Shown piece by piece: positions 3,062 through 52,131 of a DNA stretch of 57,929 nucleotides. Where the stretch lies: positions 6,175 through 64,103 of the forward strand of contig CAZLFJ010000001.1 in NCBI GenBank assembly GCA_964558795.1. The letters run 5' to 3'. Numbering within the stretch: position 1 is the first letter of the stretch; every line of letters begins with the position of its first letter. The translations under genes were made by a program, and so were the position numbers. This DNA comes from Candidatus Woesearchaeota archaeon. Lineage in GTDB: Archaea > Nanobdellota > Nanobdellia > Pacearchaeales > GW2011-AR1. The notes under the pieces were generated by a model. The model did no database searches, had not been told where the DNA came from, and saw nothing but the letters and a program-made list of their open reading frames with translations.

Positions 3062-3997
3062 CTATAGGTCTGAAAAATCTAGTTTAATTAAGAATTCTTT
3101 TATTTCTTGAAAGAATATTTTGTATTCCTCTAGATCATATTCCCTTAAATTCATGGTGTCTATTTCTTCACCTATCTCTTTTTCTAATGTAAGAAATTTC
3201 TCTTTTATTAGTCCTATTTTTTCTAATTCTTTGTTCTTATCCTCTAAAAATCCAATTCCTTGTCTTATCTTTTGTTTTATTCTTTCTTCTGATTGGTGTT
3301 TGTAGTTATGGCCTATTTTTTCTAGCAAGAATAAATCAAAAAGATCTCTTTCGTGGATTCTTCCTTGTCTAGTTAAGATTGCTCTTATTTTTTCAACTAA
3401 AATTTCTTCAGGAGAGTAAGAAAGCAAGGTTGTGTCTTTTAGGGGAAAAATTAGACTTTCTGAATTGGGATTTAGATGTTTTAGAGAGATAGTTCTTGGT
3501 TCATCAAAAAGTTCTTCAAGAAAGTTTATTTCTATTTTTATAGGGGTTTGATCTTGTTTATCTAAATAAAGATTAAATCTTGTATATGTAGTTGCTCCCT
3601 TCTTTGGACAATACTTGTTTTGTTCTTGCTTATTTATTTCATCGGAGTCAAAATCAAAAGAATACTTGTTGGCTATTTTTTGCATTTCAGGCAAGAATTC
3701 TTGCTTTAGATATCCTTTAATAAATTGTTTTTTCTGATTCTTGGTTGTTTTATTGATTTCTTTGTTGTCTGAGAAAGTAAAATCTAAATCCTCCGAAAGT
3801 CGATTACACTCTAGAAATGTTTTTGATAAAAGAGTTCCTCCTTTGAAGATTAGTTTTGAGAAAGGCGAGTTTTTATTTTGTTTTATATGTTCCGACATTT
3901 CATATAAGATATAGCTTAGAGCCAAATCTTTTTTTATCATTTCAATTGTAACTTTCTTCTTCTTTGTTTCCCCTATATATTTTTCAGGAATTATCAT
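3062..3997 (-). CDS. abiEii: AbiEii/AbiGii-family nucleotidyltransferase toxin (DUF1814)
   Basis: 311 aa. FKGGTLLSKTF...RLSEDLDFTF matches the GG-T...SEDLDF nucleotidyltransferase core typical of DUF1814 type IV toxins. Confidence 0.7.
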   Translation of the reverse strand: MIIPEKYIGETKKKKVTIEMIKKDLALSYILYEMSEHIKQNKNSPFSKLIFKGGTLLSKTFLECNRLSEDLDFTFSDNKEINKTTKNQKKQFIKGYLKQEFLPEMQKIANKYSFDFDSDEINKQEQNKYCPKKGATTYTRFNLYLDKQDQTPIKIEINFLEELFDEPRTISLKHLNPNSESLIFPLKDTTLLSYSPEEILVEKIRAILTRQGRIHERDLFDLFLLEKIGHNYKHQSEERIKQKIRQGIGFLEDKNKELEKIGLIKEKFLTLEKEIGEEIDTMNLREYDLEEYKIFFQEIKEFLIKLDFSDL

Positions 3998-4659
3998 GGT
4001 AATGTCAATTTATTGTTTTTTAGTTGTTTTGAAACTTCTTTTTCAACAAATTTATATTTTGAATAAAAAGCTAAGTAAGCTTTAATTTTTTCAAGATTTA
4101 ATTCTTTTATATCGAAGTCGCTTATAGGAGACTTTGCTTTTTTATAAAATATTTCATCAAGGAAAGTTTTTTCTAGGTCTGAGTAGAAAAAATTATTATT
4201 TGTTTTGTTTAGTGCTAGGTTTATGATTAGTTGTTTTGGAAATTTGATTAATTCTACTTCTATGTTATTTATTTTTCTTTTTAGCTTGAATTTAGTGTTG
4301 ATGATTTTAATTTTGTTTAAGCTCTGCCATGTTAATTTATTAAGATATTTAGCAAGAGATAGTCCGACATAGTAAGGAATCTTTTTATTTTCTAAGAAAC
4401 GAAAAACAAGTTCATATTCTTCAATTTTTCCGGTTTTCCAGCCTAGAAATTCTTCTTGGTTTAGAATATACCATTCTTTGTTGAAGATATATTTTATTTT
4501 TGATTTTCTTAAAATATCAAATACCTTATCGAAATCTTTTTCTTTGATTTTCCACATTTCTTGAAATTCTTTGTAGTTCTTTTCAATTTCGAGCTTTGAA
4601 GCTGTCTTTACCTTTCTTTCTATTAAGTACAACCAAAATCTTTCTGCCTTGTTTTCCAT
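3994..4659 (-). CDS. abiEi: Putative AbiEi-like antitoxin/transcriptional regulator
   Basis: 221 aa, immediately upstream of abiEii with an ATGA stop/start overlap (3994-3997). Size and position fit AbiEi, but the sequence itself is not diagnostic. TTTATAAA at 4681-4688 starts 29 nt from ATG 4659. Confidence 0.4.
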   Translation of the reverse strand: MENKAERFWLYLIERKVKTASKLEIEKNYKEFQEMWKIKEKDFDKVFDILRKSKIKYIFNKEWYILNQEEFLGWKTGKIEEYELVFRFLENKKIPYYVGLSLAKYLNKLTWQSLNKIKIINTKFKLKRKINNIEVELIKFPKQLIINLALNKTNNNFFYSDLEKTFLDEIFYKKAKSPISDFDIKELNLEKIKAYLAFYSKYKFVEKEVSKQLKNNKLTLP

Positions 4660-9854: not shown

Positions 9855-10339
9855 AAAATAATAAAATCTGTGAGCTTTTTATAATTATGGTAAAAAAATT
9901 CCCCAAGTATTGCCTTAAGGAGATTAAAATAAAATATCTCGGTCTCCAGACGTACTATTTAGAAAACATATTTGAGAAGAAAAACAAAATTGCTCAGTTT
10001 ACACTCCCGCAATACAGAAGAATATTGTTAATCTCATATATTTATATCGTTGTTCGTCATATTAATTGAGTTATAGATTATACCTCAAAAAAATAACCCA
10101 TTAATCCCGGGCAACTATATAGAAGAGTAAGGCATTACAAAACCTTCCCAGAAATTTTTGAAAGCGACTGGGGAGCGGAAGAAATTTCAAGTTTTTTGGA
10201 ATATCTCAAAGCAAAATATTCACAAGACCTAAATATCTTTTGAATAAAAAATTTCAATTCTTTTAGATATATGGAGTTATACTCGAAAAACACCTACATC
10301 TACATCGGCATAAAATAGATTATTCTTTCTCCCCAAGAT

Positions 10340-10657
10340 CTATATTCTTCCACTATCACTGCCATATCTTGTCAGTAACTCTTGTGAGACTTTTGCATAA
10401 AGGGCACTTGCTTTTTGAATTTCTTCACTGGTAGAAGGAATAGTATCACCAAAATTTAAGGCTTCACAAAGCCGAGACAGAAAAGTAGAATGAAGATTTA
10501 AACCAACACTTCTTGCAGAATCATAAAAGACCGGCCGAAGTCTTGTTGCATTTACTGTAGTCTCTGGAGAGCATTTTCCATGTGTTTTAGAATCAAAATC
10601 TATCTGACGAGTAATATCTCGAACGAAAGAATTAATTGAATTAGCACTAAAAGACAA
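10340..10657 (-). CDS. Hypothetical protein (doubtful)
   Basis: 105-aa ORF with only a TTG start, no internal Met and no TATA at -29. Confidence 0.2.
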   Translation of the reverse strand: MSFSANSINSFVRDITRQIDFDSKTHGKCSPETTVNATRLRPVFYDSARSVGLNLHSTFLSRLCEALNFGDTIPSTSEEIQKASALYAKVSQELLTRYGSDSGRI

Positions 10658-10724
10658 ATCTATTAAGACCCTATTGAGTCCATCGGAAACAAAGATTTAA
10701 TAATTTCCCAAGATAAGAGACTAT

Positions 10725-19572: not shown

Positions 19573-20226
19573 TTACAATCTCGCAATCTTTCCAGCATCA
19601 GTCAATTGCAGACCATTTTCTGTAGAAAGTAAATCCATGTCCTTGAGTTCATCAATTGCCCTATAAATCATAGCTGTAGATAAATCTAGAACCTTTGTTA
19701 AATCGGCAATAGAAGCATATTTTCCCGTTTCTACATATTCCATAATGGACTTTTGACTCTCGGTTAATTTAAATGATAATCTGGGCAAACTTATGACTGT
19801 TGCACCCTTATCTTCATCAGGCAAATACATAATCTTCTTAACTCTCTCGTGTCGGGCATAGGATGCGAATAGAAGACCCATTCCCAGTGTTTTTCTGCCA
19901 GAAGTAATATCTACATAAATATCATCTTCATTTGGTTGAGCATCCATTATTTTAACGCATTCTTTAGCAATTGCAACTATATCATACATGTTAACCTTTA
20001 TTGCTTTGACTTCGATAACCTTTCCAAGAGATTCTTTAATAAGTTTGAACGAAGCATCTTGCTTTGGTTCTGGTTGGTCGCTCATTAAAAGAAATATCCG
20101 TTCTGCACCAATCCTAGTTGTAGATAACATTGCAGGGTTTGGATTGAACAACGTTGCAATTAATACCTTTTTTCCCATATTTTCCTCTGATATTAAGGGT
20201 TCTTCTTGTTTTATATAGCTTTCCAT
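19573..20226 (-). CDS. Csa3-like CARF-domain plus winged-HTH transcriptional regulator
   Basis: N-terminal Rossmann-like half: KVLIATLFNP...RIFLLMSD...DITSGRKTLGMGLLFASYA (compare the DLTMGMR loop of Sulfolobus Csa3). C-terminal wHTH: YASIADLTKVLDLSTAMIYRAIDELKDMDLL. tatataaa at 20248-20255 lies at -29. Confidence 0.55.
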   Translation of the reverse strand: MESYIKQEEPLISEENMGKKVLIATLFNPNPAMLSTTRIGAERIFLLMSDQPEPKQDASFKLIKESLGKVIEVKAIKVNMYDIVAIAKECVKIMDAQPNEDDIYVDITSGRKTLGMGLLFASYARHERVKKIMYLPDEDKGATVISLPRLSFKLTESQKSIMEYVETGKYASIADLTKVLDLSTAMIYRAIDELKDMDLLSTENGLQLTDAGKIARL

Positions 20227-20247
20227 GAAAAATAGAAGTGTATATTA

Positions 20248-20255
20248 TTTATATA
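20248..20255 (-). promoter_or_regulatory. TATA box of the CARF-wHTH gene
   Basis: 29 nt from ATG 20226. Confidence 0.5.
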
Positions 20256-20262
20256 TGTTTGT

Positions 20263-20279
20263 ATCTTATAATATAAGAT
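20263..20279. promoter_or_regulatory. 17-bp palindrome ATCTTATA-a-TATAAGAT between the divergent promoters (candidate operator)
   Basis: Perfect 8-bp arms, read directly. Sits between the TATA at 20248-20255 and the TATA at 20300-20307. Confidence 0.4.
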
Positions 20280-20299
20280 TATACTTATTAGTAGAAAGA

Positions 20300-20307
20300 T
20301 TTAAAAA
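20300..20307 (+). promoter_or_regulatory. TATA box of the 11-cistron operon
   Basis: tttaaaaa starts 29 nt before ATG 20329. Confidence 0.5.
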
Positions 20308-20328
20308 GAATGAAAATATGATTTTTAT

Positions 20329-20550
20329 ATGAAAACAAAAATAATGAAACTTTCAGGAAAGCCAGTTATTAGCCGAGAACATATTGTAAAGATGGGCGAT
20401 TCTTTGTTTAATAACGACGAAGTGGATTCTGTAAAGCTTGAAATTATATTTAAGGACAAATCTAAACTAAGTTATGATTCTGGAACTAAACGAAAGGCTC
20501 TGTTTGATGCTGAAATGGACGAGATGATGGAGGATGATAAAGATGATTAA
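20329..20550 (+). CDS. Small protein with acidic tail (operon cistron 1)
   Basis: 73 aa, C-terminus DAEMDEMMEDDKDD. Leaderless start at -29 from the TATA. Confidence 0.5.
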   Translation: MKTKIMKLSGKPVISREHIVKMGDSLFNNDEVDSVKLEIIFKDKSKLSYDSGTKRKALFDAEMDEMMEDDKDD

Positions 20551-20573
20551 AAAAATCAATCTCGGAGGACAAA

Positions 20574-20735
20574 ATGGGATTAAACGAAAACCTTGCCCTA
20601 TGGAAAGAACTAATGATTAGGAATCCTAAGCAAATGAAATGTATAGATTGCGGTCATTTTTCATTTAATTTTGGAAATGAGGTATGCATGATCTGCGGTG
20701 GAAGGCTTCTAAATTTCTCAGAGGTTAAAAAATGA
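20574..20735 (+). CDS. 53-aa zinc-ribbon protein (cistron 2; below the ORF-track size cutoff)
   Basis: MGLNENLALWKELMIRNPKQMKCIDCGHFSFNFGNEVCMICGGRLLNFSEVKK. Has CxxC...CxxC, GGAGG at 20564-20568, and a stop overlapping the next ATG (ATGA). Confidence 0.5.
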   Translation: MGLNENLALWKELMIRNPKQMKCIDCGHFSFNFGNEVCMICGGRLLNFSEVKK

Positions 20736-21211
20736 ACAAAGAACCTATAAAAATAGCTCTGAAAGATATAAGATGTAAACATCTAGAGAAAATTCTGGAA
20801 TTAGATGGATATGTTATTTCTTGTTCGCAAATTAAGAAAATGACAACGAATAAAAAATTTAGATGTTCTAAATGCAATACTGATTGTTCTTTGTTGCAAC
20901 TTACATCATATATTCAGAGAGTTGATAGGTGTGCTGTCTGCGGATCAGAATCTCTTTATGACGAGGGATCGGAGGAGGTAGATTTTCAGCAAATTGTGAT
21001 AGCTGATAAAAACGAAGAGTGTGCGAATTCTTCAGAGTTAGCGGTGATTTTTAATGGAGAAGTGTTATCCTCAATAAATCTTCTGGATAAATTAAATCAA
21101 AAAGTTTGTGTTATTGGAGAATTAGGAGAATTGGTTTCTGATGAAGATGGAAACAGATCAATATTCTCCTCATTTTGTCTAAAGGCACATGAGTTAAAGG
21201 AGCTAAAATGA
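20732..21211 (+). CDS. MCM N-terminal-domain-like OB-fold/Zn-ribbon protein without an AAA+ module (cistron 3)
   Basis: LELDGYVISCSQIKK...FRCSKCNTDC...RCAVCGS...VDFQQIVIAD...KVCVIGELGE. This parallels ISIEGIVRQASEVRP...FECPSCGT...RCSSCGR...VDAQRLVLEE...KVRAIGILKE of the bona fide MCM at 49234-51300. Confidence 0.45.
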   Translation: MNKEPIKIALKDIRCKHLEKILELDGYVISCSQIKKMTTNKKFRCSKCNTDCSLLQLTSYIQRVDRCAVCGSESLYDEGSEEVDFQQIVIADKNEECANSSELAVIFNGEVLSSINLLDKLNQKVCVIGELGELVSDEDGNRSIFSSFCLKAHELKELK

Positions 21212-21318
21212 AAAAATCTTTTAAAGAATGGTGGTTTAAGTGGGATGGAGTAATTGCCTTTATTTTAACTATAATTATGATCCTAATATTGATTAAGGCA
21301 TGGAGAATTTTAAGATGA
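21208..21318 (+). CDS. 36-aa single-TM peptide (cistron 4)
   Basis: MKKSFKEWWFKWDGVIAFILTIIMILILIKAWRILR. ATGA overlaps at both ends. Confidence 0.4.
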   Translation: MKKSFKEWWFKWDGVIAFILTIIMILILIKAWRILR

Positions 21319-21494
21319 AAACTATCTATATAATCTATCACATCCTAATGGGTTCACTCGTAACCTATTTTTTTACTAAATTTGTTTGGTTAATTCTTAA
21401 TTCGGTTGACTGTGCTTGGAATTATTTTCTGCTTATGTTACTTATGATGTCTGTTTGGTTGCAGGTTGTTTTATCGCAGAGGAGGAAAAGATAA
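21315..21494 (+). CDS. 59-aa two-TM peptide (cistron 5)
   Basis: MKTIYIIYHILMGSLVTYFFTKFVWLIL... The start is taken at the ATGA overlap rather than the track's 21300. Confidence 0.4.
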   Translation: MKTIYIIYHILMGSLVTYFFTKFVWLILNSVDCAWNYFLLMLLMMSVWLQVVLSQRRKR

Positions 21495-21871
21495 TGAAAA
21501 GAAAAGATAAACAATTATTAAAAGAGGTAGGGATTGTTTTATTAATATCTATAGCAATAGCTTCTTTTGTTTTTTTATTGATTACTCATAGCGATAATAG
21601 AGATTCTAAAATACCTCGGATAGAAGAAATTTTTAAAAATACTACTGCATATAAATATGCTATTGAAAATAATGCAAATATTAGTAAGGTAACTTTTGTA
21701 GATTCTATTTCAAGAGATACCTTCTTGAGAAAAAATGGTTATTTGACTGCTTGTCCTTATTTGACATTCAATGATTTTGCTTTTATTTATGGGAGAAGAT
21801 TTATTGTAGCAATAAATATAGAAACATTTGAAGTTGAGTGTGATTGGGTTAAGGGGATGACTGAATGTTAA
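21494..21871 (+). CDS. 125-aa signal-anchored extracytoplasmic protein (cistron 6)
   Basis: MKRKDKQLLKEVGIVLLISIAIASFVFLLI... TAATG overlap, with GGAGGA at 21481-21486. Confidence 0.45.
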   Translation: MKRKDKQLLKEVGIVLLISIAIASFVFLLITHSDNRDSKIPRIEEIFKNTTAYKYAIENNANISKVTFVDSISRDTFLRKNGYLTACPYLTFNDFAFIYGRRFIVAINIETFEVECDWVKGMTEC

Positions 21872-21896
21872 ATAAATCTCAGATACTGGATGAACA

Positions 21897-22070
21897 ATGA
21901 AAATCATAGCTACTAAGATTAAGATGATAATAGATTCAGAAGATGAAAGACCTATTATGGATATAGTTGACCCACTGGTAAATCCGGATTATGATGTAGT
22001 TATAGAACAAATTGGGAACATTATCATTACGGTTGAAAGGAGTGTTTCTTGGATGAGAAAGGGAATATGA
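21897..22070 (+). CDS. 57-aa protein (cistron 7; below the track cutoff)
   Basis: MKIIATKIKMIIDSEDERPIMDIVDPLVNPDYDVVIEQIGNIIITVERSVSWMRKGI. Stop overlaps the next ATG. Confidence 0.35.
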   Translation: MKIIATKIKMIIDSEDERPIMDIVDPLVNPDYDVVIEQIGNIIITVERSVSWMRKGI

Positions 22071-22600
22071 AGAAAGATTTAAAATATTTATCTAAGCAAT
22101 TTATTTCTTTTGTGATTTCTGCTATTGCTTTGATCTGTTTACTCGGCTATTTGCATGAATTCTCCCATTTTGTTGCTTGCAGGGGTTTTGGGCTCGAGTC
22201 TTCTATGAGTATAAATCCCTTTCAAGCAAGGCCAGAATATGTAACTTTCTGCCTTGGGGCAGAAACTCTTTCAAACTGGCAGTTTTTTGTTGTTAGGGCT
22301 TCGCCTTATTTTGTCGGTATGGTTTTAATGATTTTCTTATTTTTTCTATATAAACCAAAAAGTTTTGTGGGCTTGGCTTTGCCGGGAGCAATTGTAATAG
22401 AAAATTGGCTAAATGTTCTTCATTTGATTGGTCCTTTTAATGAAATCATAGATTTTAGAAATGATTTGTTGCAGATTTTTGTTCATACTAATAAAGGTTA
22501 TTTGTTCTTGGTCTTGCTTTTTATGGGTGTTAGCCTTTGGCTATTGATTTTAATGGCCGTGGGGGCCGGGCAGAGAATCAGGGCGGGAGGGAGAAGATGA
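22067..22600 (+). CDS. Polytopic membrane protein with HExxH (putative zincin-like intramembrane peptidase, DUF3267-like) (cistron 8)
   Basis: LGYLHEFSHFVACRGFG sits at the end of TM1 (nt about 22154-22168), followed by several more hydrophobic helices. Start at the ATGA overlap (22067). Confidence 0.45.
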   Translation: MKKDLKYLSKQFISFVISAIALICLLGYLHEFSHFVACRGFGLESSMSINPFQARPEYVTFCLGAETLSNWQFFVVRASPYFVGMVLMIFLFFLYKPKSFVGLALPGAIVIENWLNVLHLIGPFNEIIDFRNDLLQIFVHTNKGYLFLVLLFMGVSLWLLILMAVGAGQRIRAGGRR

Positions 22601-22887
22601 ATGAGCAAGAAGAGTTACTTGAGAAAATAATCTTGGGAGGTTCAACTGTTCACAGGTGGGATAAATTCAAATGTTTGTCTTGTAGAGCCATTATATCTCT
22701 TTTGCAATACAACTTCAAGAGAAAAGGAAGAAATTGGATTCTTTTACCAAAAGCTCCGAAAAGTTGTGCTGTATGCGGTAATACTAGGTTCAAAAAAGTT
22801 GGCTATTCTTATTTAGCAGAATCTGGAAAGATTCTTTTTGAAAAGAAGCTCAAAGAAAAGGTTAAAAAGAAGGGGGAAGTGGAGTAG
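22597..22887 (+). CDS. 96-aa zinc-ribbon protein with basic tail (cistron 9)
   Basis: CLSCRA...CAVCGN. Start at the ATGA overlap (22597), not the track's 22537. Confidence 0.45.
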   Translation: MNEQEELLEKIILGGSTVHRWDKFKCLSCRAIISLLQYNFKRKGRNWILLPKAPKSCAVCGNTRFKKVGYSYLAESGKILFEKKLKEKVKKKGEVE

Positions 22888-22890
22888 AGT

Positions 22891-23631
22891 ATGGATAAAA
22901 AACCTACTAGGGAGGTAATAAATTTAGCCTCTAAGATTCTTGAAAAAACACCCTATGAAACGCAAAAAGAGATCATAAAGAAGATATTTAACAGGACTGA
23001 AGATACTAAGGAAGATATTATTTTGAGGCTAATGGTTATTGATAGTGGATATTCGACAAACCTTAACAGAAGACTTTTTGGGTTTGAAGAGATTTCTAAA
23101 TTTTTAGTTGAAATAACTCCTCATATTGAATTGCTTTTATATGAAAAGATAAATGACTTGGATTTTTTCAAAAAACTTGAAAAAGATTTAGTAAAAGGAT
23201 ATGGAATAAGTAAAATTGGAAAAGAAGGAGGGCATGCTTTTTCTCTAATTAGTAAATATATCTATTTTAGAAGTAATTTTAAGTTCCCAATATATGACTC
23301 ATTAGTAAGAAAAGGCTTAGCAAAGTTAGGAAAAATTGGAAGGTATGAAAATCACCCCTCTCTAAAATATTTTGAAGAACTGAAGAAATTAAGGGAGGAG
23401 CTTAAATGCACTATTGATGATCTTGATAAATATTTCTGGATTCTTGGAAAGATAGGGGATGTAAAACAAATAAGCCCGTCCCTCTTAATTAGTAATAAAG
23501 AAATATATCGGGAAGATTTCTTGAAAGGCATGAAAGGAAAAAAAGATTTAGAAACATTTAAAATAGCAAAATTCAGTAATCCAAAATTAAGATTAATGCA
23601 AGAATTTTCTAGGAAGGTTAATAATGACTAA
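22891..23631 (+). CDS. 246-aa helical protein of unknown function (cistron 10)
   Basis: Conserved-looking blocks VIDSGYSTNL, AFSLISKYIYFRSNFKFPIYDS and LDKYFWILGK. 8-nt overlap with the helicase gene. Confidence 0.5.
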   Translation: MDKKPTREVINLASKILEKTPYETQKEIIKKIFNRTEDTKEDIILRLMVIDSGYSTNLNRRLFGFEEISKFLVEITPHIELLLYEKINDLDFFKKLEKDLVKGYGISKIGKEGGHAFSLISKYIYFRSNFKFPIYDSLVRKGLAKLGKIGRYENHPSLKYFEELKKLREELKCTIDDLDKYFWILGKIGDVKQISPSLLISNKEIYREDFLKGMKGKKDLETFKIAKFSNPKLRLMQEFSRKVNND

Positions 23632-26287
23632 TCTCTCCTTCCTCTCCGACCTAACGCAAGAAAAACAAGACATAATCAAAACAGATGGAAATGTCCTTGT
23701 TACTGCAAATCCTGGAACGGGTAAAACCCTTCTTCTTGCATATAAATATGCTTATTTGATTGCTAAGGGAATTAAGCCTGAAGAGATTTTGTGTTTGACT
23801 TTCACAAACAAGGCAAAAAAGGAACTTGAAGGAAGAATAATTGAAGAAATAAAGAATATTGGTTTGGAAGTTGATTTTTCTAAAATAAATGTTCATACAT
23901 TTCACTCTTACGCCTTGGATTATGTTGATGAGGAAGAGGTTGTTTCTTCTAATATGCTTAGATATGCGATTTACCAATATCTCAAAGAAAAAGAGATACT
24001 TAATTATGCAGATGCTTATTTGATAAGTGAAATTGTTCCTAGGATGGAAAATCTTCTTAGATATTTGAAGAGCTTTGGGATAACTCCTGAAAAGATAGAT
24101 ATAGAGAAAGCCAAAGAATTTATAAAAGATTCAGAGAAACATCAAAAACAAGATCTTGATAAGTTCTTGGAACATTTTGTTGATGTTTACAAGCATTATG
24201 AGACTATGAAATCTAGGAAGGGAATAGATTATGCAGATATGCTTCTGAAATTTCGCGATATAAAAAATCCTCCGATGTTTGAATATGTTTTAATCGATGA
24301 ATTGCAGGATGTTAATACAATTGAGGCAGATATGGCTTTAATGTCTTGTAAGCATTTTGTTGCGGTAGGAGATAAAAAGCAAGCTATTTTTGGTTTTCAG
24401 GGTGGTTCGATTGTTAATTTCAAGAAGTTTGAGAATGCTCAAAAGTTTGTTTTAACTGAGAATTTTAGAAGTGCTCAAGAGGTTCTTGATTATTCAAGAG
24501 AGTTTTTCTTGAAGAGATCACAAGATGTTTCTCATAAAGCAGATCTAGTTAAATTGAAAAATGCAAAAGGAACTAGATCTAAAAAACCCGTTATTTATTC
24601 TGTTCCCCGAGAAGATACAAGTTTGGCAGTTTGTGAACTAATCAAACAATATTCTGGGAAGGGCAAAGTTGCAGTTATTGCAAGAACAAATACTCAGATT
24701 TCAAGGCTTTCTAAGGCCTTGAAGGATAGGGGAATTGATCACTCTTCCACATTCTTTTCTGCTTCTAAAGAAGCCAAAGAAAAAATGATCTTGTTTTTGA
24801 GGGGAATTCTTTCAAATGACATTCAAATTGTTAAGAATTCTATGTTTACCCCATTTTTCCCTTGTTCGGTTCAACAATCCTTTGATATTGCAAGCGAGGA
24901 AACAAAAACCTTAGAAGATTTGTATAAATTAAGTCCAGAGTTTAAGAGTCTTAGAGATTCAATCAAGAATCTGGATGATTTAATTGGAATCTTCAAGGAA
25001 AGAGTTATGCCTGTTGCTATTGCGTATGGTAGGGAAACACTTCTTGCGGCAATTAATGTTGAAGAAGCATTGCAAGAAGCTTTGAAATTTGTTGATAATA
25101 TTAATTTGAAGACCTTGGTGGACTATTTGGAGTCTTCAGATTTGTTGACTGACGGCTCAGATGTTGAAAAGCCAGTTATTTTAACAACAGTTCATAAGGC
25201 AAAGGGAAAGGAGTATGATTCTGTGATTTATATTCCTACAAAATCCAAGAATAATTCTAATTTTCAGGATGAGATTGTTGAGGCAATATTGAAATCCCAA
25301 GGCATTAATGCGGAAGAGGAACTGGAAGAGGAGGCACTGCGAATTGATTTTGTGGCTTTCACTAGAGCAAAATCCAATCTTTGCGTTATTGTTGAGAAGC
25401 CAGAGGATTATTTGAATGATTCTGCAGAAATTGGAGAACTTTGTCTAGATTCAATTGAAAGCTTTGAGTTTTCACAGAGATCTAAAAGAGCATATAATTT
25501 ATTCTTAAACAAAGAATATGAGAAAGCTAAGGAGCTTTTAGAGATAAACAAGTCTTGGATTATCAATTATGTAAAGAATCATTTTGCGAATATTGATCAT
25601 GTTTCTTATTCTGGTTTGAAAGATAGTGCTTTTGAGTATTTGATGGAGAGGATTTTGAAAGTTAGAGAAGCAACTTCTGCAACAAATGTTGGAACAGATG
25701 TTCATGAGATTGCTCGGAGACTTTGCACTGGTGAAAAAGTTGTTGTTAAACCAGAATATGAGCCATACAAAAAAAATTTGGATTATATCTTGAAACAGAT
25801 TAGGGAAACTTATCCGCAAGGATATGCTTTTGAAGAAAAAATACAAGTCGGCTTAAAAGAAATTGTTGGTGAGGGGGAGGAACTAGTATTTACAGGATTT
25901 ATTGATGCGATTTTCAAGAATCAAGATCGGTATTTGATTGTTGATTGGAAGACGGACAAGAAAACAGATAATGCTTCAAAGCATAGGCAACAGCTTGAGG
26001 CTTACAAGAAGGCACTTTCAAGTTTGAAGGGAATTCCAATGGATAAGATTGATGTTGCGATTGGTTTTGTGGGCCTGAGAAAAACCATAAATGATGGGAC
26101 AATTGATTGTGAATTTGATAATAAACAGCCTGCAAAGTCTGCTTTTGGGACATTTACTAAAAGAGTGAATAAACTTCTTGAATGGAGAAATAATCCAGAC
26201 AAGTTCTTTGAGGATCTGATTGAGGAAAAGGTTGATGATGATATTTGGAGGGCTGTGGTTGAGCAGTATATGGGGGAGAAGGAATGA
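23624..26287 (+). CDS. UvrD/PcrA-type SF1 helicase fused to a C-terminal RecB-family PD-(D/E)xK nuclease (cistron 11)
   Basis: Helicase motifs: ANPGTGKT (I), LTFTNKAKKEL (Ia), VLIDELQDV (II), VGDKKQAIFGFQGGS (III), LTENFRS (IV), TTVHKAKGKEYDSV (VI), VAFTRAK. Nuclease motifs: GTDVHEI, GFIDAIF, IVDWKTDK, QQLEAYKKAL. No Cas4-type Cys cluster. Confidence 0.8.
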   Translation: MTNLSFLSDLTQEKQDIIKTDGNVLVTANPGTGKTLLLAYKYAYLIAKGIKPEEILCLTFTNKAKKELEGRIIEEIKNIGLEVDFSKINVHTFHSYALDYVDEEEVVSSNMLRYAIYQYLKEKEILNYADAYLISEIVPRMENLLRYLKSFGITPEKIDIEKAKEFIKDSEKHQKQDLDKFLEHFVDVYKHYETMKSRKGIDYADMLLKFRDIKNPPMFEYVLIDELQDVNTIEADMALMSCKHFVAVGDKKQAIFGFQGGSIVNFKKFENAQKFVLTENFRSAQEVLDYSREFFLKRSQDVSHKADLVKLKNAKGTRSKKPVIYSVPREDTSLAVCELIKQYSGKGKVAVIARTNTQISRLSKALKDRGIDHSSTFFSASKEAKEKMILFLRGILSNDIQIVKNSMFTPFFPCSVQQSFDIASEETKTLEDLYKLSPEFKSLRDSIKNLDDLIGIFKERVMPVAIAYGRETLLAAINVEEALQEALKFVDNINLKTLVDYLESSDLLTDGSDVEKPVILTTVHKAKGKEYDSVIYIPTKSKNNSNFQDEIVEAILKSQGINAEEELEEEALRIDFVAFTRAKSNLCVIVEKPEDYLNDSAEIGELCLDSIESFEFSQRSKRAYNLFLNKEYEKAKELLEINKSWIINYVKNHFANIDHVSYSGLKDSAFEYLMERILKVREATSATNVGTDVHEIARRLCTGEKVVVKPEYEPYKKNLDYILKQIRETYPQGYAFEEKIQVGLKEIVGEGEELVFTGFIDAIFKNQDRYLIVDWKTDKKTDNASKHRQQLEAYKKALSSLKGIPMDKIDVAIGFVGLRKTINDGTIDCEFDNKQPAKSAFGTFTKRVNKLLEWRNNPDKFFEDLIEEKVDDDIWRAVVEQYMGEKE

Positions 26288-26377: not shown

Positions 26378-27262
26378 ATGGCTGTTGATAAAAAAAACCA
26401 AGTAAGATTATTTGAAAAAACTAAAGTTAGAACTGTTTGGGATGAAAATAATCAAAAATGGTGGTTTTCAGTGTTAGATATTATAGGAATATTAACCGAC
26501 CAACCAGACTTTAAGAAAGTTCGTAATTATTGGAAATGGCTAAAAAATAAGCTAAAATCGGAGGGAAGCGAGTTGGTTAGTAATGCTAACCAACTGAAAC
26601 TACTTGCAGCAGATGGAAAATATTACGAAACAGATGTAATGGATACAGAGCAGATTTTAAGACTTATTCAGTCTATTCCTTCAAGAAAGGCAGAACCTTT
26701 TAAGATGTGGCTTGCAAAAGTGGGAAATGAGAGAATAGACGAATCTATTGACCCAGAACTTTCTATTGATAGAGCAATCCAGAATTATCAAGGATTGGGA
26801 TATAATGAAAATTGGATTAATCAAAGGATTAAATCTATTGAAGTTAGAAAAGCTTTAACTGATGAATGGGATAAAAGTGGGGTTAAAAAAGGTTTAGAAT
26901 ATGCAGAATTAACTGATTTAATGAGTAAAACTTGGAGCGGTATGACAACGAATGAATACAAAAAATTTAAAGATTTAAAGAAAGAAAATCTTAGAGACAA
27001 TATGACTAATACGGAGCTTGTTTTAAATATGCTTTCTGAAGTTGCAACAACAGATATTTCTTTAGTTCGTAATCCGGCATGTTTTGAAGAAAGTAAAAAA
27101 GTTGCAAAAGAAGGAGCTTTAACTGCAAAAGTTGCAAGAGAACAACTTGAAAACAGCACTGGTAAAAAAGTAATAAGTAAATCTAATGCTAAAACCTTTA
27201 GAGAATTAAAGAAAAAACAAGGGGAGTTGATACTAGGGGGTGAGAGAGATGGGAAGAATTAA
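26378..27262 (+). CDS. Bro-N domain protein with DinD-like C-terminal region
   Basis: FEKTKVRTVWDENNQKWWFSVLDIIGILT is the Bro-N signature. LRDNMTNTELVLNMLSEVATTDI resembles the DinD-type C-terminal half. Confidence 0.6.
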   Translation: MAVDKKNQVRLFEKTKVRTVWDENNQKWWFSVLDIIGILTDQPDFKKVRNYWKWLKNKLKSEGSELVSNANQLKLLAADGKYYETDVMDTEQILRLIQSIPSRKAEPFKMWLAKVGNERIDESIDPELSIDRAIQNYQGLGYNENWINQRIKSIEVRKALTDEWDKSGVKKGLEYAELTDLMSKTWSGMTTNEYKKFKDLKKENLRDNMTNTELVLNMLSEVATTDISLVRNPACFEESKKVAKEGALTAKVAREQLENSTGKKVISKSNAKTFRELKKKQGELILGGERDGKN

Positions 27263-27286: not shown

Positions 27287-27658
27287 ATGGCAAAAGACAC
27301 TGAAACAAAGCTTCATGAACTGAAACAGAAAATCAAAGGATTCTGTGATGCTAGAGACTGGGATCAATTCCACAACGCAAAAGAACTTGCAATTGCTCTT
27401 TCTATAGAGGCCTCAGAGCTTTTAGAGATCTTCAGATGGAAATCACCTCAAGAAGTAGATGAATTATTCAAAAACGAAAAGAAGAAAGAAGATATAGAAG
27501 ATGAAATGGCCGACGTTCTTTATTTCCTAGTTAGGATTGCTCAGTTATATGATTTAGATTTAACAGAGGCTTTAGAAAGGAAGATGGATAAAAACGACAA
27601 GAAATATCCCGTAGATAAGGCAAGAGGTTCAAATAAAAAATACAACGAGTTTGAATAA
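27287..27658 (+). CDS. MazG-like nucleoside-triphosphate pyrophosphohydrolase (DCTPP1-like)
   Basis: FCDARDWDQFHNAKELAIALSIEASELLEIFRW...EDEMADVLYFLVRIAQLYDLDL...KMDKNDKKYP. This is the all-alpha NTP-PPase E-x-x-E...E-x-x-D pattern. Confidence 0.75.
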   Translation: MAKDTETKLHELKQKIKGFCDARDWDQFHNAKELAIALSIEASELLEIFRWKSPQEVDELFKNEKKKEDIEDEMADVLYFLVRIAQLYDLDLTEALERKMDKNDKKYPVDKARGSNKKYNEFE

Positions 27659-29325
27659 TGAAAGAATTACAAATAAAAGAATTTCTATTTGGGGAAGAAA
27701 CTCCAGAAATTCTAAGTTTTAGTACTGAAAATGGAAAAATAAATTGGTCTGGAAACTGGCCCGTAGTATATATTCTATTAAATGAAGATGAAGCCTATAT
27801 TGGAGAGACATATAAAGTAAAAGAGAGACTAAAACAGCATTATGGAAATCCCGAAAGAAAATTGCTTAAAAAAGTATTTATTCTAATAGATGAAGAATCT
27901 AACAAATCCTACACTCTAGATCTTGAGGCATTTTTAATAAGATATATGTCTGCTGACGGGGTTTTTAAACTTCAGAATAGTAATAAGGGTCTAATAAATT
28001 ATGAATACTTTGGTAGGGAATCCTATAAAAAGAGATTTGAAAAAACAATTTGGCCGAAATTAAAAGAACTGCAACTTGCAAAAAGAGATTTGTTCTTAAT
28101 TCAAAACGATGATTTATTTAAATATAGTCCCTATACTCCCCTGGCATCTACACAACATGAAATTGTTACTAAAATCTTAAATGATCTTATAAATACATTC
28201 AATAGAAAGGTCTCTATAGTTGTTCGAGGAGGTCCAGGAACTGGAAAAACAGGTATTGGATCCTATTTGGTAAAGCTATTGACTTCTAAAGATGAAAGTT
28301 TTGAAGATGAAGAAACAAAACTTGAGCTGAGTAAAGTACAAAACAAAATTAGAAAAATAGGTTTTGTTATTCCCCAACAATCCTTGCGAAAAACTCTTAA
28401 AAGAGTCTTTAAAAAAATTAAAGGACTACATCCTGGGATGGTTTTGAGTCCAAATGATGTTGTCAAAGAGAAGTTTGATTTATTGATTGTTGATGAAGCA
28501 CACCGTTTAAGAAGAAGAAAAAACCTATCTACCTACAAACAATTTGATGATAATAACAGAAAACTTGGTTTGCCTAGAGATGCAACCGAATTAGATTGGA
28601 TATTGTTAAATAGTAAGAACAGAATATTTTTCTACGACCCGGAGCAAACTATTAAACCAACAGATATAGAAAATAAATACTTTTTGGACAGGATAAGCGG
28701 AGATTTATTTTTTGAACACAAATTAACTTCTCAATTTAGAGTAAAGGGTGGTGAGGACTATATAACCTATATAAAAGAAATACTTAACTCCCGATTAGAA
28801 AAAAAGAAGGAATTTGAAGAATACGACTTTAAGATTTTTGAAAATTTTTCAGAAATGAGGTTGGAAATAATAAAAAGAGATAAAGAGTTCCAACTGGCAA
28901 GAATTGTAGCAGGTTATGGTTGGAAATGGAAATCTAAAGGAGATAAAAATATTCCAGATATAGAAATTGAAGATGAAAAAATGGTATGGAATACTGAAAT
29001 TGTAGATTGGGTTAATAGCAAGAGATCCCTGGAGGAGGTTGGGTGTATTCACACAATACAAGGATATGACTTAAATTATGCAGGAGTAATATTTGGACCA
29101 GAGATTATATATGACCCTGAAGAGAAAAAAATAAAGATAATAAAAAATAATTATCATGATTTTAATGGAAAGAGAAGCATCAATTCTGAAGAGGAACTTG
29201 AAGAATATGTAAAAAATATTTATGGGGTCTTGCTCACTAGGGGGATGAAAGGAACATATGTTTATGCAGTTGATAAAAATCTTAGAGAATACCTAAAGAG
29301 GTTCATAAACTTGTTCAATCACTAA
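27658..29325 (+). CDS. GIY-YIG nuclease fused to a DUF2075/Schlafen-type SF1 ATPase
   Basis: N-terminus VVYILLNEDEAYIGETYKVKERLKQH (GIY-YIG). Then GGPGTGKT, LLIVDEAHRL, LTSQFRVKGGEDYITYI, ARIVAGYGWKW, GCIHTIQGYDLNYAGVIFG and VLLTRGMKGTYVY (DUF2075 blocks). TAATG overlap with the MazG gene. Confidence 0.75.
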   Translation: MKELQIKEFLFGEETPEILSFSTENGKINWSGNWPVVYILLNEDEAYIGETYKVKERLKQHYGNPERKLLKKVFILIDEESNKSYTLDLEAFLIRYMSADGVFKLQNSNKGLINYEYFGRESYKKRFEKTIWPKLKELQLAKRDLFLIQNDDLFKYSPYTPLASTQHEIVTKILNDLINTFNRKVSIVVRGGPGTGKTGIGSYLVKLLTSKDESFEDEETKLELSKVQNKIRKIGFVIPQQSLRKTLKRVFKKIKGLHPGMVLSPNDVVKEKFDLLIVDEAHRLRRRKNLSTYKQFDDNNRKLGLPRDATELDWILLNSKNRIFFYDPEQTIKPTDIENKYFLDRISGDLFFEHKLTSQFRVKGGEDYITYIKEILNSRLEKKKEFEEYDFKIFENFSEMRLEIIKRDKEFQLARIVAGYGWKWKSKGDKNIPDIEIEDEKMVWNTEIVDWVNSKRSLEEVGCIHTIQGYDLNYAGVIFGPEIIYDPEEKKIKIIKNNYHDFNGKRSINSEEELEEYVKNIYGVLLTRGMKGTYVYAVDKNLREYLKRFINLFNH

Positions 29326-29406: not shown

Positions 29407-29538
29407 TCTACTCTCAATCTGCTCTTTCAAAACATAAATATTACAAAATTATAAAATTGAAAGCCAAATTGCTCTACTCGCAATCTGCTCTTTCAAAACA
29501 CGAATATTACAAAATTATAAAATTGAAAGCCAAATTGC
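29407..29538. repeat. Two abutting 66-bp direct repeats (63/66 identical) plus a degenerate start of a third
   Basis: Copy 1 (29407-29472): tctactctcaatctgctctttcaaaacataaatattacaaaattataaaattgaaagccaaattgc. Copy 2 (29473-29538) differs at 3 positions. Each unit holds an internal GCTCTTTCAA...TTGAAAGC inverted repeat. Confidence 0.85.
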
Positions 29539-29867: not shown

Positions 29868-30518
29868 ATGACAAAAATAAAAAGAAAACAAAGACATGGA
29901 TTTGGCTCGATAGTTGGAGAAGAAAGGCTAACGATACTAGAAGGAACAATAATTGCCTCATTTTTTCCCGAAGCGGAAGAAACAACCATAAAAGAAATCC
30001 AAGATAGAACAGATTATTCTTACGAAAGAATAAACTCTGCTTTAAAATCACTAGCTAAAAAAGATATAGCGACTGAAAAACAAATAGGGAAAACATTGGT
30101 TTATTCCTTAGATTTGCATAATCTATACTCAAAAATAGGATTTAGCAACTACATGCTCGAAAGGGAAATAGAATTTATCAAAAAACATAAACTAATATTT
30201 AAATCAATTGAAGAAATATCAAAAGACATTTTTGGGATAATCATTCTATTTGGAAGTTATTCAAAAGGAAATGAAAAAAATAGTTCAGATATTGATTTAA
30301 TGGTTGTTTCGGAAAACAAACAGCTTGCAGAAGAAAAAATAAATGAGATAAAAATAAAAAGGGGATACGAAATTTCACTTGCCTTTATCAAAACTCTCGA
30401 GTTTCCTAAAATAAAGAAAGAAAATCCTGAGCTTTGGGCAGATTTAAAGCAATATGCAATTGTTTTTAATGGCGAAGATTCGTATTATTACTGGATGTAT
30501 CAAGATGCAAACAATTGA
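29868..30518 (+). CDS. wHTH-fused minimal nucleotidyltransferase (MNT, antitoxin-type)
   Basis: N-terminal wHTH-like TTIKEIQDRTDYSYERINSALKSLAKKDI. NTase core IILFGSYSKGNEKNSSDIDLMVV (GS-x-D-x-D). Confidence 0.65.
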   Translation: MTKIKRKQRHGFGSIVGEERLTILEGTIIASFFPEAEETTIKEIQDRTDYSYERINSALKSLAKKDIATEKQIGKTLVYSLDLHNLYSKIGFSNYMLEREIEFIKKHKLIFKSIEEISKDIFGIIILFGSYSKGNEKNSSDIDLMVVSENKQLAEEKINEIKIKRGYEISLAFIKTLEFPKIKKENPELWADLKQYAIVFNGEDSYYYWMYQDANN

Positions 30519-31020
30519 CTTTTACATAAGCAAAGGGCAACTGGTAAAAGATGACACAATCAAATCAAAGGCAAAAAGCTATTTGAACAAAGCAAGACAT
30601 AATTTAGAAATTTTAGATGCCCTAGATAAACTAAACATAAATAAACAAGCAAAAGAGATTTTAAAGATTTCACAAGATTTCGATTCTAGCGAATGGGTTG
30701 TTATTTCTGGATATTATGCGATGTATACTGCATCCCTGGCGCTTCTTGCAAAGGTGGGTTTTAGAAGTAAAAACCATACAGCAACATTACTCGTTTTAGA
30801 GGAATATTTTGTGAAAAAGAAACTTTTAGATCAGACTTCTTATTTAAAATTAAAAAATGCTTCATTCCAAAAAGAAGAGCTAGAGAAAATTTCAGAAGCA
30901 AGACATCAAAGAGAAATCGCCCAATATAGTATAACAAAACAAACAACAAAAGACATTGCACAAAAAATTAAAAAAGATACCTATGAATTCATAAACAAAG
31001 TAGAGTTAATATTAGAATAG
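30505..31020 (+). CDS. HEPN-domain protein (partner of the MNT)
   Basis: Start at MQTIDFYISK (14-nt overlap with the MNT gene). All-helical, with YYAMYTASLALL and SEARHQREIAQYS (PF05168-like R...Y block). Confidence 0.55.
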   Translation: MQTIDFYISKGQLVKDDTIKSKAKSYLNKARHNLEILDALDKLNINKQAKEILKISQDFDSSEWVVISGYYAMYTASLALLAKVGFRSKNHTATLLVLEEYFVKKKLLDQTSYLKLKNASFQKEELEKISEARHQREIAQYSITKQTTKDIAQKIKKDTYEFINKVELILE

Positions 31021-51300: not shown

Positions 51301-51321
51301 AAAGATAATAAATAAATGGCT

Positions 51322-51329
51322 TTTATAAG
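51322..51329 (-). promoter_or_regulatory. TATA box of mcm
   Basis: cttataaa, 29 nt from ATG 51300. Confidence 0.5.
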
Positions 51330-51357
51330 ATTTTGTAATCTCTGAAGTATAGTTTAA

Positions 51358-52131
51358 CTAAAGCAATTTAGATAGATTCCCAATATCTTTGTTTGCAACA
51401 TGGGTATATATTTGTGTTGTTTGTAAACTTTTGTGTCCAAGTAGTTTTTGTATATATCTAATATCTGCACCTGCCTCTAATAGATGTGTTGCGAATGAGT
51501 GCCGTAACATATGTGGATGAACATTTTTCTGTATATCTGCTCTTTTTGCAGAAGTTTTAACAATTGATTGAATAGTCTTTTCCGAGTATTTTTTGTCTCG
51601 GTTAGACACAAATATTAATCCGGTTCGTGGCATTTTAGAATTGTCCAAAAACTCAATAAGTTTATCGTGCAAAAAAATAGTTCTCTGGTGTTCGCCCTTT
51701 GCGATTTTCAATTGGATTGTTTTTCTCTCAAAATCTAGATTCTCCCATCTTAAATGGATTAATTCGTTCATACGAAGTCCAGCATAGTAAAGAAAAGTAA
51801 TAATCAATTTATGTTGAGAGTTTTCTGTTTTATCAATCATTTCTAAAACTTCTTTTTTATTTAGAATTTCCGGAAGGATTACCTTCTTTTTTGCAAGTGG
51901 AATTTTTTCCTCAAATTTTTTGTTTAAAACGTTTTCATAGTAAAACTTAATTGCAAAATAAATTGTTCTTAAGGTATTTCTTGTTTGAGTAGAATAAGAA
52001 TAGATAAAATCTTTGGGGGTTTTTTGGCTTTGCAAAAATTTAGTCACATAAAAGATATATTTCTCCGCAGTATTTCTTGAATGTTTTCTTAATTGCAATT
52101 CTTGGGTCAACTTACTCAATTCTTCTTGCAT
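51358..52131 (-). CDS. xerA: XerA/XerC/D-type tyrosine recombinase
   Basis: SAM-like N-domain, GLRMNELIHLRW (Arg I), and HMLRHSFATHLLEAGADIRYIQKLLGHKSLQTTQIYTHV (H-x-x-R, H, catalytic Y). Confidence 0.85.
   Translation of the reverse strand: MQEELSKLTQELQLRKHSRNTAEKYIFYVTKFLQSQKTPKDFIYSYSTQTRNTLRTIYFAIKFYYENVLNKKFEEKIPLAKKKVILPEILNKKEVLEMIDKTENSQHKLIITFLYYAGLRMNELIHLRWENLDFERKTIQLKIAKGEHQRTIFLHDKLIEFLDNSKMPRTGLIFVSNRDKKYSEKTIQSIVKTSAKRADIQKNVHPHMLRHSFATHLLEAGADIRYIQKLLGHKSLQTTQIYTHVANKDIGNLSKLL

Follow-up and report, generated by a model that had tools for sequence, protein, structure and literature searches.

To our knowledge, nearly all that is understood about CARF sensors concerns their part in type III CRISPR signalling. 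Regulators of the Csa3/CARF3 type, such as Csa3a and Csa3b of Sulfolobus and the HFX_2341-like proteins of Haloferax (PF19810), combine a CARF domain with a winged-helix domain. HFX_2341 of Haloferax is a global repressor that is also present in species lacking CRISPR (PMC11434293) and thus provides a precedent for cas-independent members of the Csa3-type family. The UvrD-Cas4-like fusion proteins form a monophyletic family found across bacteria and mesophilic archaea, with genes of type III restriction-modification (RM) or Dcm/Vsr systems as neighbours in contexts that are otherwise non-conserved, and an ancillary role in several defence pathways has been proposed for them (Hudaiberdiev et al. 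2017, PMC5704561). Genes related to both families were identified on a stretch of 57,929 nucleotides (nt) of the genome of a Candidatus Woesearchaeota archaeon (contig CAZLFJ010000001.1, positions 6,175 to 64,103), the whole of which is referred to here as the window. On its minus strand lies a gene for a Csa3-family regulator of 217 amino acids (aa) with a CARF and a winged helix-turn-helix (wHTH) domain, assigned by profile matches (19573..20226). Facing it on the plus strand is a string of eleven open reading frames (ORFs), g1 to g11, the last of which encodes a UvrD-type superfamily 1 (SF1) helicase fused to a RecB-type PD-(D/E)xK nuclease, assigned with Pfam (g11, 887 aa, 23624..26287).

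The locus is probably a chromosomal defence island of a DPANN archaeon arranged around two conserved anchors, the Csa3-type regulator and the helicase-nuclease. It was compared with approximately 175 related loci fetched for comparison (labelled L001 and so on below), comprising a helicase-anchored set of 80 loci drawn from reference genomes, a regulator-anchored set of a further 80 drawn from metagenomes, and added contigs of the closest relatives. The elements that recur among these are the CARF-wHTH gene, a bidirectional promoter with a palindrome, and the helicase-nuclease; the genes between g1 and g11 are a fast-turnover mosaic and not a fixed machine. A defence role for the locus is suggested by its gene content, and the placing of the helicase-nuclease family in defence contexts (PMC5704561) is in independent agreement with the setting found here.

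An initial annotation, made from the sequence alone, had described a Csa3/CARF-type regulator with a C-terminal wHTH domain, and profile searches bear this out. The protein matched NCBIfam TIGR01884 ('CRISPR-associated CARF protein Csa3') with 74.8 bits, above the curated cutoff of 60.2, as well as PADLOC CARF3 over its full length (E=2.5e-61) and PADLOC Csa3 (E=1.7e-17). Among Pfam families, HFX_2341_N was matched with 40.4 bits, passing the gathering score of 30, and Csa3_N with 24.5 bits, just under the gathering score of 27. With a profile of 13 homologues as query, the N-terminal half was found to match the CARF proteins 8bao and 3qyf in the PDB, and the C-terminal half the wHTH domains of PH1932, Lrs14 and AdcR; residues 154-204 of the latter half also matched HTH_11, MarR and HTH_24 of Pfam. 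The CARF assignment rests on these profile matches, a single-sequence AlphaFold2 (AF2) model of the regulator having a predicted local distance difference test (pLDDT) value of 47.6. The annotated loop (DITSGRKTLGMGLLFA) is present in the protein, and its residues T108-x-G110-R111-x-T113 are conserved in 13 homologues. The regulator thus resembles the Csa3/CARF3 proteins in its two-domain build, with a Rossmann-like CARF domain that contains the T-x-G-R-K-T loop at the N-terminus and a winged helix at the C-terminus, in passing the TIGR01884 cutoff, and in the palindrome-containing promoter at its gene. Unlike these regulators, it stands in 58 kb without cas genes, a CRISPR array or Cas10. No CRISPR-like repeats were found in the window and no Cas protein among the approximately 45 larger ORFs scanned there, a scan that was not exhaustive; to this extent both the absence of cas genes and CRISPR arrays from the 58 kb and the cas-independence of the regulator within the window, as annotated, were confirmed. 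In the inspected flanks of relatives, the regulator was likewise not found beside CRISPR-cas. Its putative targets also differ from those of Csa3 regulators, being a helicase-nuclease operon in the window and innate-defence nucleases or an IetA-like ATPase in relatives.

The regulator gene and g1 are separated by a bidirectional promoter of 102 bp (20227..20328). Within this spacer, the TATA box of the CARF gene lies at 20249-20256 on the minus strand, and a B recognition element (BRE) with a TATA box (AGAAAG-ATTTAAAAA, 20294-20307, plus strand) lies approximately 29 nt ahead of the g1 ATG, the annotated TTTAAAAA being found at 20300-20307. Both TATA boxes are situated approximately 29-30 nt before their respective ATG codons, a spacing that fits leaderless transcripts. 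The leaderless promoter that had been described as opening the operon was retained, with the additions that it is bidirectional and that it is probably, rather than certainly, leaderless. Shine-Dalgarno-like GGAGG/GAGG motifs were found ahead of several internal cistrons and none ahead of g1. A scan for bacterial-type promoters and terminators gave no more matches than shuffled sequence and is uninformative for an archaeon.

The same spacer contains a candidate palindromic operator (20264-20284). The palindrome that had been reported here is real (ATCTTATAATATAAGAT), and only its coordinates were one base off (20264-20280, not 20263-20279). The spacer can be aligned over its full length with that of L084, and when the 5' regions of approximately 80 non-identical regulator genes were aligned with the TATA box as anchor, a layout common to the family was obtained: TATTTAAAT-ATTTCTAT ... 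GTATAATATTATAC ... ATAGAAAG-TATATAAA ... approximately 25 nt ... ATG. The outer two elements of this layout are back-to-back BRE/TATA core promoters and the centre is a 14-bp perfect palindrome, the whole arrangement being found upstream of CARF genes in dozens of loci. The CARF promoter zones, 25.8 kb in all, contain 23 matches to GTATAATATTATAC with at most two mismatches, compared with nine in the remaining 851 kb of locus DNA, an enrichment of approximately 80-fold at CARF promoters; with at most three mismatches, a match is present in 43 of 91 loci. The copy in the window (20271-20284) has two mismatches and overlaps the palindrome at 20264-20280. The inverted repeat TTTCTAT...ATAGAAA was rejected as an operator, its halves each abutting a TATA box, and these halves are best read as the BRE elements of the back-to-back promoters. 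As a dimeric wHTH protein is encoded beside a family-wide palindrome, the simplest reading would be that the regulator binds the palindrome. With the operator upstream of both core promoters, the regulator might be either an activator or a repressor.

The closest relatives that possess both genes, L084/L085 (helicase 74% and CARF 65% identical), share the divergent layout of the window, with the CARF gene on the minus strand, a spacer of 102 bp, a g1-like gene, an unrelated 52-aa ORF and the helicase gene. In most of the loci with both genes, among them L087, L006, L114, L105, L106, L118, L141 and L159, the CARF gene lies upstream of the helicase gene on the same strand, in these eight with 0-6 kb of variable genes between them, and in L141, L159 and L080 the regulator directly abuts the helicase gene. 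In an unbiased count of loci anchored on the helicase and having at least 2 kb of upstream flank, a CARF gene accompanied 8 of the 23 helicases of at least 45% identity; none of 33 loci with helicases of 30-45% identity had one. In the other direction, the orthologous helicase was present in 4 of 29 loci that were anchored on CARF and extend at least 5 kb downstream of it. Whether read-through or divergent, both architectures leave the helicase under the promoter region of the regulator, which argues for co-regulation over chance. In the DPANN clade, the position immediately before the helicase is taken by a co-directional, tightly coupled gene whose identity varies with almost every locus: g10, a PD-(D/E)xK-like, DUF5677, DUF262/GmrSD or DinD-like gene, or others.

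The helicase-nuclease matched the Pfam families UvrD-helicase (E=1.6e-40), UvrD_C and, C-terminally, PDDEXK_1 (pfam12705, E=6e-11). The Walker A motif (GTGKT), DELQD, D761, D774-x-K776 and Q790...Y794 were found to be invariant when 31 homologues were aligned. The nuclease region (residues 640-887) contains two cysteines only, and no conserved cysteine cluster occurs among the invariant or near-invariant columns of these 31 homologues, so the nuclease is of the RecB/AddA type and not of the Cas4/AddB type, the four iron-sulfur cysteines of which are not conserved in g11. Best matches were from Nanobdellota, Nanoarchaeota and Woesearchaeota, and homologues of at least 50% identity were found in Nanoarchaeota, Woesearchaeota, Pacearchaeota, Micrarchaeota, Altiarchaeales, Thermoplasmatota and a few bacteria. 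In its SF1 UvrD part and C-terminal PD-(D/E)xK domain with QxxxY, its taxonomic spread and its defence-island neighbourhoods, g11 corresponds to the UvrD-Cas4-like fusions, so that its family is one already described in 2017; unlike the contexts published for that family, relatives of g11 are recurrently linked to a CARF-wHTH regulator, a link not reported in that paper (PMC5704561). With AddA and RecB it shares a UvrD-like motor followed by a RecB-type nuclease, together with weak NCBIfam matches to recB and addA. It differs from them in its length (887 aa against approximately 1200 aa), in equivalog scores that are all far under their cutoffs, and in having no AddB, RecC or RecD partner nearby. 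It is also unlike Gabija, GajB models matching g11 only via the shared UvrD core, and no GajA-like (OLD-family nuclease) gene was found beside it.

The likeness to AddA/RecB bears on an alternative in which the locus is a housekeeping DNA-repair operon, with g11 carrying out AddA/RecB-like end processing, g10 acting as a base-excision glycosylase and the Csa3-like protein serving as a general regulator. Such an operon could account for the presence of helicase-nucleases of at least 50% identity in many archaeal phyla, with invariant catalytic motifs and, for the window's helicase, a very low ratio of nonsynonymous to synonymous substitution rates (dN/dS, 0.04). The predicted glycosylase-like fold of g10 would also suit it, HFX_2341-type regulators are global and occur without CRISPR (PMC11434293), and a reference cited in PMC5704561 is credited there with reporting that Csa3a couples cas and repair genes. 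Against this, the immediate neighbours are overwhelmingly genes of restriction or abortive-infection type, which are exchanged even among close relatives, the distribution of the g10 family is patchy, and the published analysis of the fusion family preferred defence (PMC5704561). A housekeeping repair operon is accordingly considered improbable.

The gene on which this alternative partly depends, g10 (22891..23631, plus strand), encodes a 246-aa protein of the Pfam family HI_0787_N (PF27257) with a predicted HhH-GPD glycosylase-like fold. The top Foldseek matches of its AF2 model (pLDDT 89.6) were all HhH-GPD glycosylases (Ogg2, TM1821, EndoIII, MagIII, MutY and AGOG), with E-values of 0.03-0.06, a probability of 0.97 for 3knt and 3n0u, and TM-scores of just 0.35-0.40, because of which the glycosylase reading is a lead only. 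Unlike these glycosylases, g10 gave no sequence-level match to the HhH-GPD family. K122 and D136, invariant in the g10 family and situated in a helix-hairpin-like stretch, are candidate catalytic residues. Homologues with PF27257 form 26 clusters of 41-50% identity that are scattered over bacteria and archaea. A family member stands alone in a hut operon, between hutU and a formimidoyltransferase gene (L001-L003, approximately 10001-10705), on contigs that are bacterial and also carry dnaA; others lie beside an integrase in another bacterium and in a type I RM/ThsB-TIR island. To judge from this distribution, g10 belongs to an independently mobile defence-island family.

All twelve ORFs were found at the coordinates of the initial annotation. 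Recomputed distances between neighbouring genes were +23 nt for g1-g2, -4 for each of g2-g3, g3-g4 and g4-g5, -1 for g5-g6, +25 for g6-g7, -4 for both g7-g8 and g8-g9, +3 for g9-g10 and -8 for g10-g11, in agreement with the seven overlapping junctions and three gaps of 3-25 nt counted previously. Scoring with a frame-specific Markov model, for which the confident long genes of the window served as training set, placed the annotated frame first for all eleven ORFs of the string; g1 obtained the top coding score and only g5 was marginal. The tight translational coupling of all cistrons favours a reading in which the eleven and the regulator would make up one dedicated, ligand-gated defence system. 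Its membrane arm would consist of the HExxH protease and the transmembrane peptides, and its DNA arm of the MCM-OB protein, the zinc ribbons, g10 and the helicase-nuclease. The initial annotation had offered the cistrons as such a module; its conservation is contradicted by the comparison, the set being repeated in no other locus among the approximately 175.

The individual genes bear on this proposal in both directions. The first gene after the promoter, g1 (20329..20550, plus strand, as are all genes of the string), encodes a 73-aa protein with an acidic tail and is recurrent: in L084/L085 and L173 a homologue likewise opens the array behind the divergent promoter, and in L124, L121 and L142 homologues are found in the vicinity of a CARF gene. 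This fixed position beside the promoter in four lineages would be in keeping with a single system. It is followed by g2, a 53-aa four-cysteine zinc ribbon (20574..20735, CxxC...CxxC), and, after g3, by g4, a 36-aa peptide with a single transmembrane segment (21208..21318, from hydropathy and coding score), and g5, a two-transmembrane peptide (21315..21494), 59 aa long when its start is taken as the ATG at 21315, whose in-frame coding score barely beats that of other frames. No homologues of g2, g4 or g5 were found in any locus fetched. The 125-aa product of g6 (21494..21871) is N-terminally anchored by one transmembrane segment (residues 7-25), and a homologue with 44% identity is located in a divergent array beside the CARF gene in L095.

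The 57-aa g7 (21897..22070) has a homologue directly ahead of g8 in L170/L171. The latter gene (22067..22600) encodes a 177-aa polytopic membrane protein in which the annotated HEFSH, an instance of HExxH, was found. It is a putative DUF3267-like zincin, its match to this Pfam family scoring 22.6 bits, under the gathering score of 27.1. Relatives of g8 with 75-76% identity are present in L170-L173, and its dN/dS with two relatives is 0.14-0.19, about 0.15. In L170, the helicase of which is 93% identical to g11, an MCM AAA+/lid fragment, a g7-like gene, g8 (76% identical) and an unrelated 229-aa gene precede the helicase. The synonymous rates (dS) of g8 and the helicase are equal, at approximately 0.95 and 0.97, indicating that the two were co-inherited, and dN/dS is low in both (0.15 and 0.04), indicating purifying selection. 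Such joint inheritance of g7, g8 and the helicase favours one system, as does the recurrence of HExxH membrane proteins in related arrays, with two in L173. Other small polytopic HExxH membrane proteins, with the motifs FHELAH and HEAGH, were observed in L173 (366-797) and in L007 (14507-15172), and membrane-embedded putative zincins may be a family typical of such loci.

The last of the small genes, g9 (22597..22887), encodes a 96-aa basic zinc ribbon; CxxC pairs are present in both g2 and g9, which is consistent with their annotation as zinc ribbons. A remnant of g9 exists in L173. Behind the CARF promoter this locus has g1, a further gene for an HExxH membrane protein and a lid fragment of MCM, after which come g8 and the g9 remnant; there is no helicase on the contig. 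When L170 (3319-3859) was aligned to the window (22067-22895), a deletion of approximately 300 nt was seen to have removed g9, fusing the g8 frame to the g9 tail (…KVKKKGEV). This loss, the replacement of g10 in the same locus by an unrelated gene, the run of g1, a 52-aa ORF and then the helicase in L084, and the stand-alone occurrence of the g10 family elsewhere all count against a single system, as do the missing relatives of g2, g4 and g5 and the lack of any PADLOC model matching g3, g8, g9 or g10. The homologues of g3, g6 and g9 recur only sporadically. Thus, of the genes expected to be neighbours elsewhere, the regulator and helicase, g1, and the g7-g8 pair were indeed found so, but g2, g4 and g5 were not, and a single twelve-gene defence system appears very unlikely.

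The remaining gene of the string, g3 (20732..21211), encodes a stand-alone MCM N-terminal OB/zinc-finger protein of 159 aa (Pfam MCM_OB, 39.1 bits, above the gathering score), which aligns with positions 94-245 of 682 of the NCBIfam MCM model. Only the OB/zinc-finger part is present in g3, the AAA+ MCM P-loop domain being absent. An exhaustive HMMER search returned at least 15 clusters of g3-like proteins of approximately 160 aa that are stand-alone from end to end, so g3 is not simply debris. Homologues occur near CARF genes in L142, in the array beside the regulator, and in L084. Other MCM pieces were found as separate ORFs in relatives (AAA+/lid of 221 aa in L170, lid of 91 aa in L173, AAA+ of 386 aa in L165), and a 481-aa fusion of MCM_N and MCM_OB with an Mrr-type restriction nuclease lies approximately 3 kb from the regulator in L084 (3274-4719); it seems that proteins of defence type have recruited MCM N-terminal domains for DNA binding. 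A derivation of g4-g6 from a decaying MCM AAA+ domain was considered and rejected, the MCM fragments of relatives matching only the cellular MCM at 49-51 kb of the window by tblastn; g6, moreover, has a homologue of its own.

The arrays of relatives also include the N-terminal part of a tyrosine recombinase, as well as a small AAA ATPase, and together the MCM, recombinase and AAA pieces point to a mobile-element ancestry of part of the string. It might be supposed from this that the string is a decaying integrated MCM-encoding mobile element, with the Csa3-like protein as its repressor or as counter-defence (a cyclic-oligoadenylate sponge or ring nuclease) and the helicase-nuclease as cargo. 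MCM AAA+/lid/winged-helix pieces, tyrosine-recombinase fragments and the small AAA ATPase occur in co-directional arrays (L170, L173, L165), long runs of small zinc-ribbon, winged-helix and transmembrane genes diverge from CARF genes (L142, L124, L095, L121), integrases were found in six CARF loci, gene turnover is high, and an insertion sequence element lies beside the helicase in L178. For the window itself, however, the only PHROGs match was that of g3 to an MCM-type helicase, and no capsid, structural or packaging genes were found with that database. The integrase nearest to the string is at 51358-52131, none being present within 25 kb of it; no att repeats or flanking direct repeats were found, ARAGORN detected no tRNA gene in the 58 kb, and the guanine-plus-cytosine (GC) content of the string equals that of its flanks with no compositional break. 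Only one CARF homologue was found in the 2.9 million contigs of IMG/VR with the CARF alignment as query; scans of IMG/VR with g3 and g8 gave no match and, being based on exact 8-mer matching, carry little weight. Furthermore, the regulator's promoter drives IetA-like ATPases or defence nucleases in loci without a small-gene array. The cryptic virus or plasmid suggested by the initial annotation thus finds partial support in the MCM and integrase fragments of relatives, but the window shows no capsid gene, no nearby integrase and no att repeats, and its flanks are chromosomal; an integrated element is considered a rather unlikely description of the locus. On the preferred reading of a defence island with two anchors, mobile-element MCM pieces would be one component of the mosaic, alongside small zinc-ribbon and membrane proteins and the independently mobile g10.

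The chromosomal setting follows from the genes that flank the region, namely two aminoacyl-tRNA synthetases at 11-15 kb of the window, DnaK/DnaJ at 39-42 kb, GatD at 45 kb, a full-length cellular MCM at 49-51 kb and GatA at 55 kb. Genes of defence or toxin-antitoxin type occupy approximately 15-31 kb. Directly after the helicase, on the same strand, lies a Bro-N/PDC-S13 gene (26378-27262; PADLOC candidate PDC-S13, E=1e-123), followed, as identified with Pfam/PADLOC, by genes for a MazG-like pyrophosphatase (27287-27658), a GIY-YIG and Schlafen-group-3 helicase protein (27658-29325) and a nucleotidyltransferase and HEPN pair (29868-31020), all on the plus strand. The GIY-YIG/Schlafen-type helicase gene is separated from the nucleotidyltransferase gene by an intergenic region that contains a perfect-register tandem duplication with a 66-nt unit and copies that are 95% identical (29407-29538); it has no Rfam match, and no Rfam family reached its gathering threshold anywhere in the window. 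The region 3062-4659 contains an AbiEii-type nucleotidyltransferase toxin gene (311 aa, E=1e-26) and, upstream of it and overlapping with it, a 221-aa ORF that is probably its AbiEi partner; the two would make another toxin-antitoxin or defence pair. Directly after the cellular-type MCM (688 aa), and on its strand, lies a gene for a 257-aa tyrosine recombinase (Phage_integrase, E=7e-43; both within 49234-52131), which may be XerA or may indicate an integrated element.

With the locus read as a defence island, a mechanism can be proposed in which a regulator dimer on the operator would set transcription of its own gene and of the g1-to-g11 string. A nucleotide-type ligand in the CARF domain may change operator occupancy, and the helicase-nuclease, together with the accessory gene directly upstream of it (here g10), would unwind and degrade foreign or damaged DNA.

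A number of observations weigh against this reading. The proposed ligand gating via the CARF domain is its weakest link: no CARF-ligand synthase (Cas10, CD-NTase or mCpol) was found in the window, and only generic Pol-beta nucleotidyltransferases are present there. Binding of the palindrome by the regulator is suggested by position and conservation, and the half-sites GTATAAT and ATTATAA of the window have five extra bases between them when compared with the consensus. The linkage of regulator and helicase is facultative, at 14-35% of loci, and could partly reflect that both genes live in defence islands. The helicase-nuclease may instead, with lower probability, have a housekeeping repair role, more distant members of its family adjoining tgtA-like genes.

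The regulator family was also examined beyond its link to the helicase. In approximately 80% of loci the regulator gene is followed within approximately 60 nt by a same-strand gene that varies by locus. These downstream genes (n=62) include Bro-N/PDC-S13 (six), GmrSD/DUF262 (five) and UDG glycosylases (two), further families being Cas4-like PD-(D/E)xK nucleases, UvrD and DEAD helicases, NucS_C, GIY-YIG, PLD, methyltransferases, McrB-like proteins and Schlafen/AlbA_2 proteins. The Bro-N/PDC-S13 gene that follows the helicase in the window is therefore of the kind most common directly downstream of CARF genes elsewhere (L099, L107, L131, L135, L139 and L134), where copies are 41-55% identical. 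On the divergent side, the regulator is most often paired with an IetA-like AAA ATPase of approximately 450 aa (29 of 94 loci; PADLOC IetA, E=5e-36), an example being L091 (2996-4348); this gene is not present in the window. Judged by these neighbourhoods, the regulator family is a putative hub for a changing set of innate-defence genes directed at DNA, in archaea that are largely without CRISPR. As a speculative extension, a Csa3-type CARF-wHTH subfamily of the genome-reduced DPANN archaea might have been uncoupled from CRISPR. Acting through one conserved palindromic operator in a bidirectional promoter, it would be the common switch for hypervariable cassettes of innate defence, with the helicase-nuclease, GmrSD, PDC-S13/Bro-N, Cas4-like nucleases or the IetA-like ATPase as their products, and would respond to a nucleotide signal sourced outside the locus. 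The source of such a signal could be an unrecognised synthase or molecules from the host cell of these episymbionts.

The locus and its approximately 90 relatives suggest a Csa3-type sensor with a recognisable operator that is wired to innate DNA-targeting defence genes in archaea mostly without CRISPR, its partner most often being a UvrD/RecB-type helicase-nuclease. If ligand control were true, defence islands would be transcriptionally inducible by a second messenger, and the conserved operator offers a direct experimental handle. The helicase-nuclease family gains a third recurrent context, beyond the two published ones, and the comparison shows that the string's small genes are not to be taken for a single machine. 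The initial annotation's remark that no described system has such a composition holds for the whole string but not for its parts, both anchor families and the defence-island setting having been described already.

Variable defence hotspots between conserved genes exist, as in those of P2/P4-like prophages. These hotspots and the locus in the window have in common conserved anchors and fast-exchanging defence cargo. They differ in that no element borders were found at the window locus and in that its anchors are a chromosomal archaeal regulator and a helicase-nuclease, not phage core genes. Compared with the described systems, and with the 2020 CARF census (Makarova et al., NAR) not taken into account, the component families are known, and what appears to be new here is the recurrent wiring of regulator, operator and helicase-nuclease without CRISPR.

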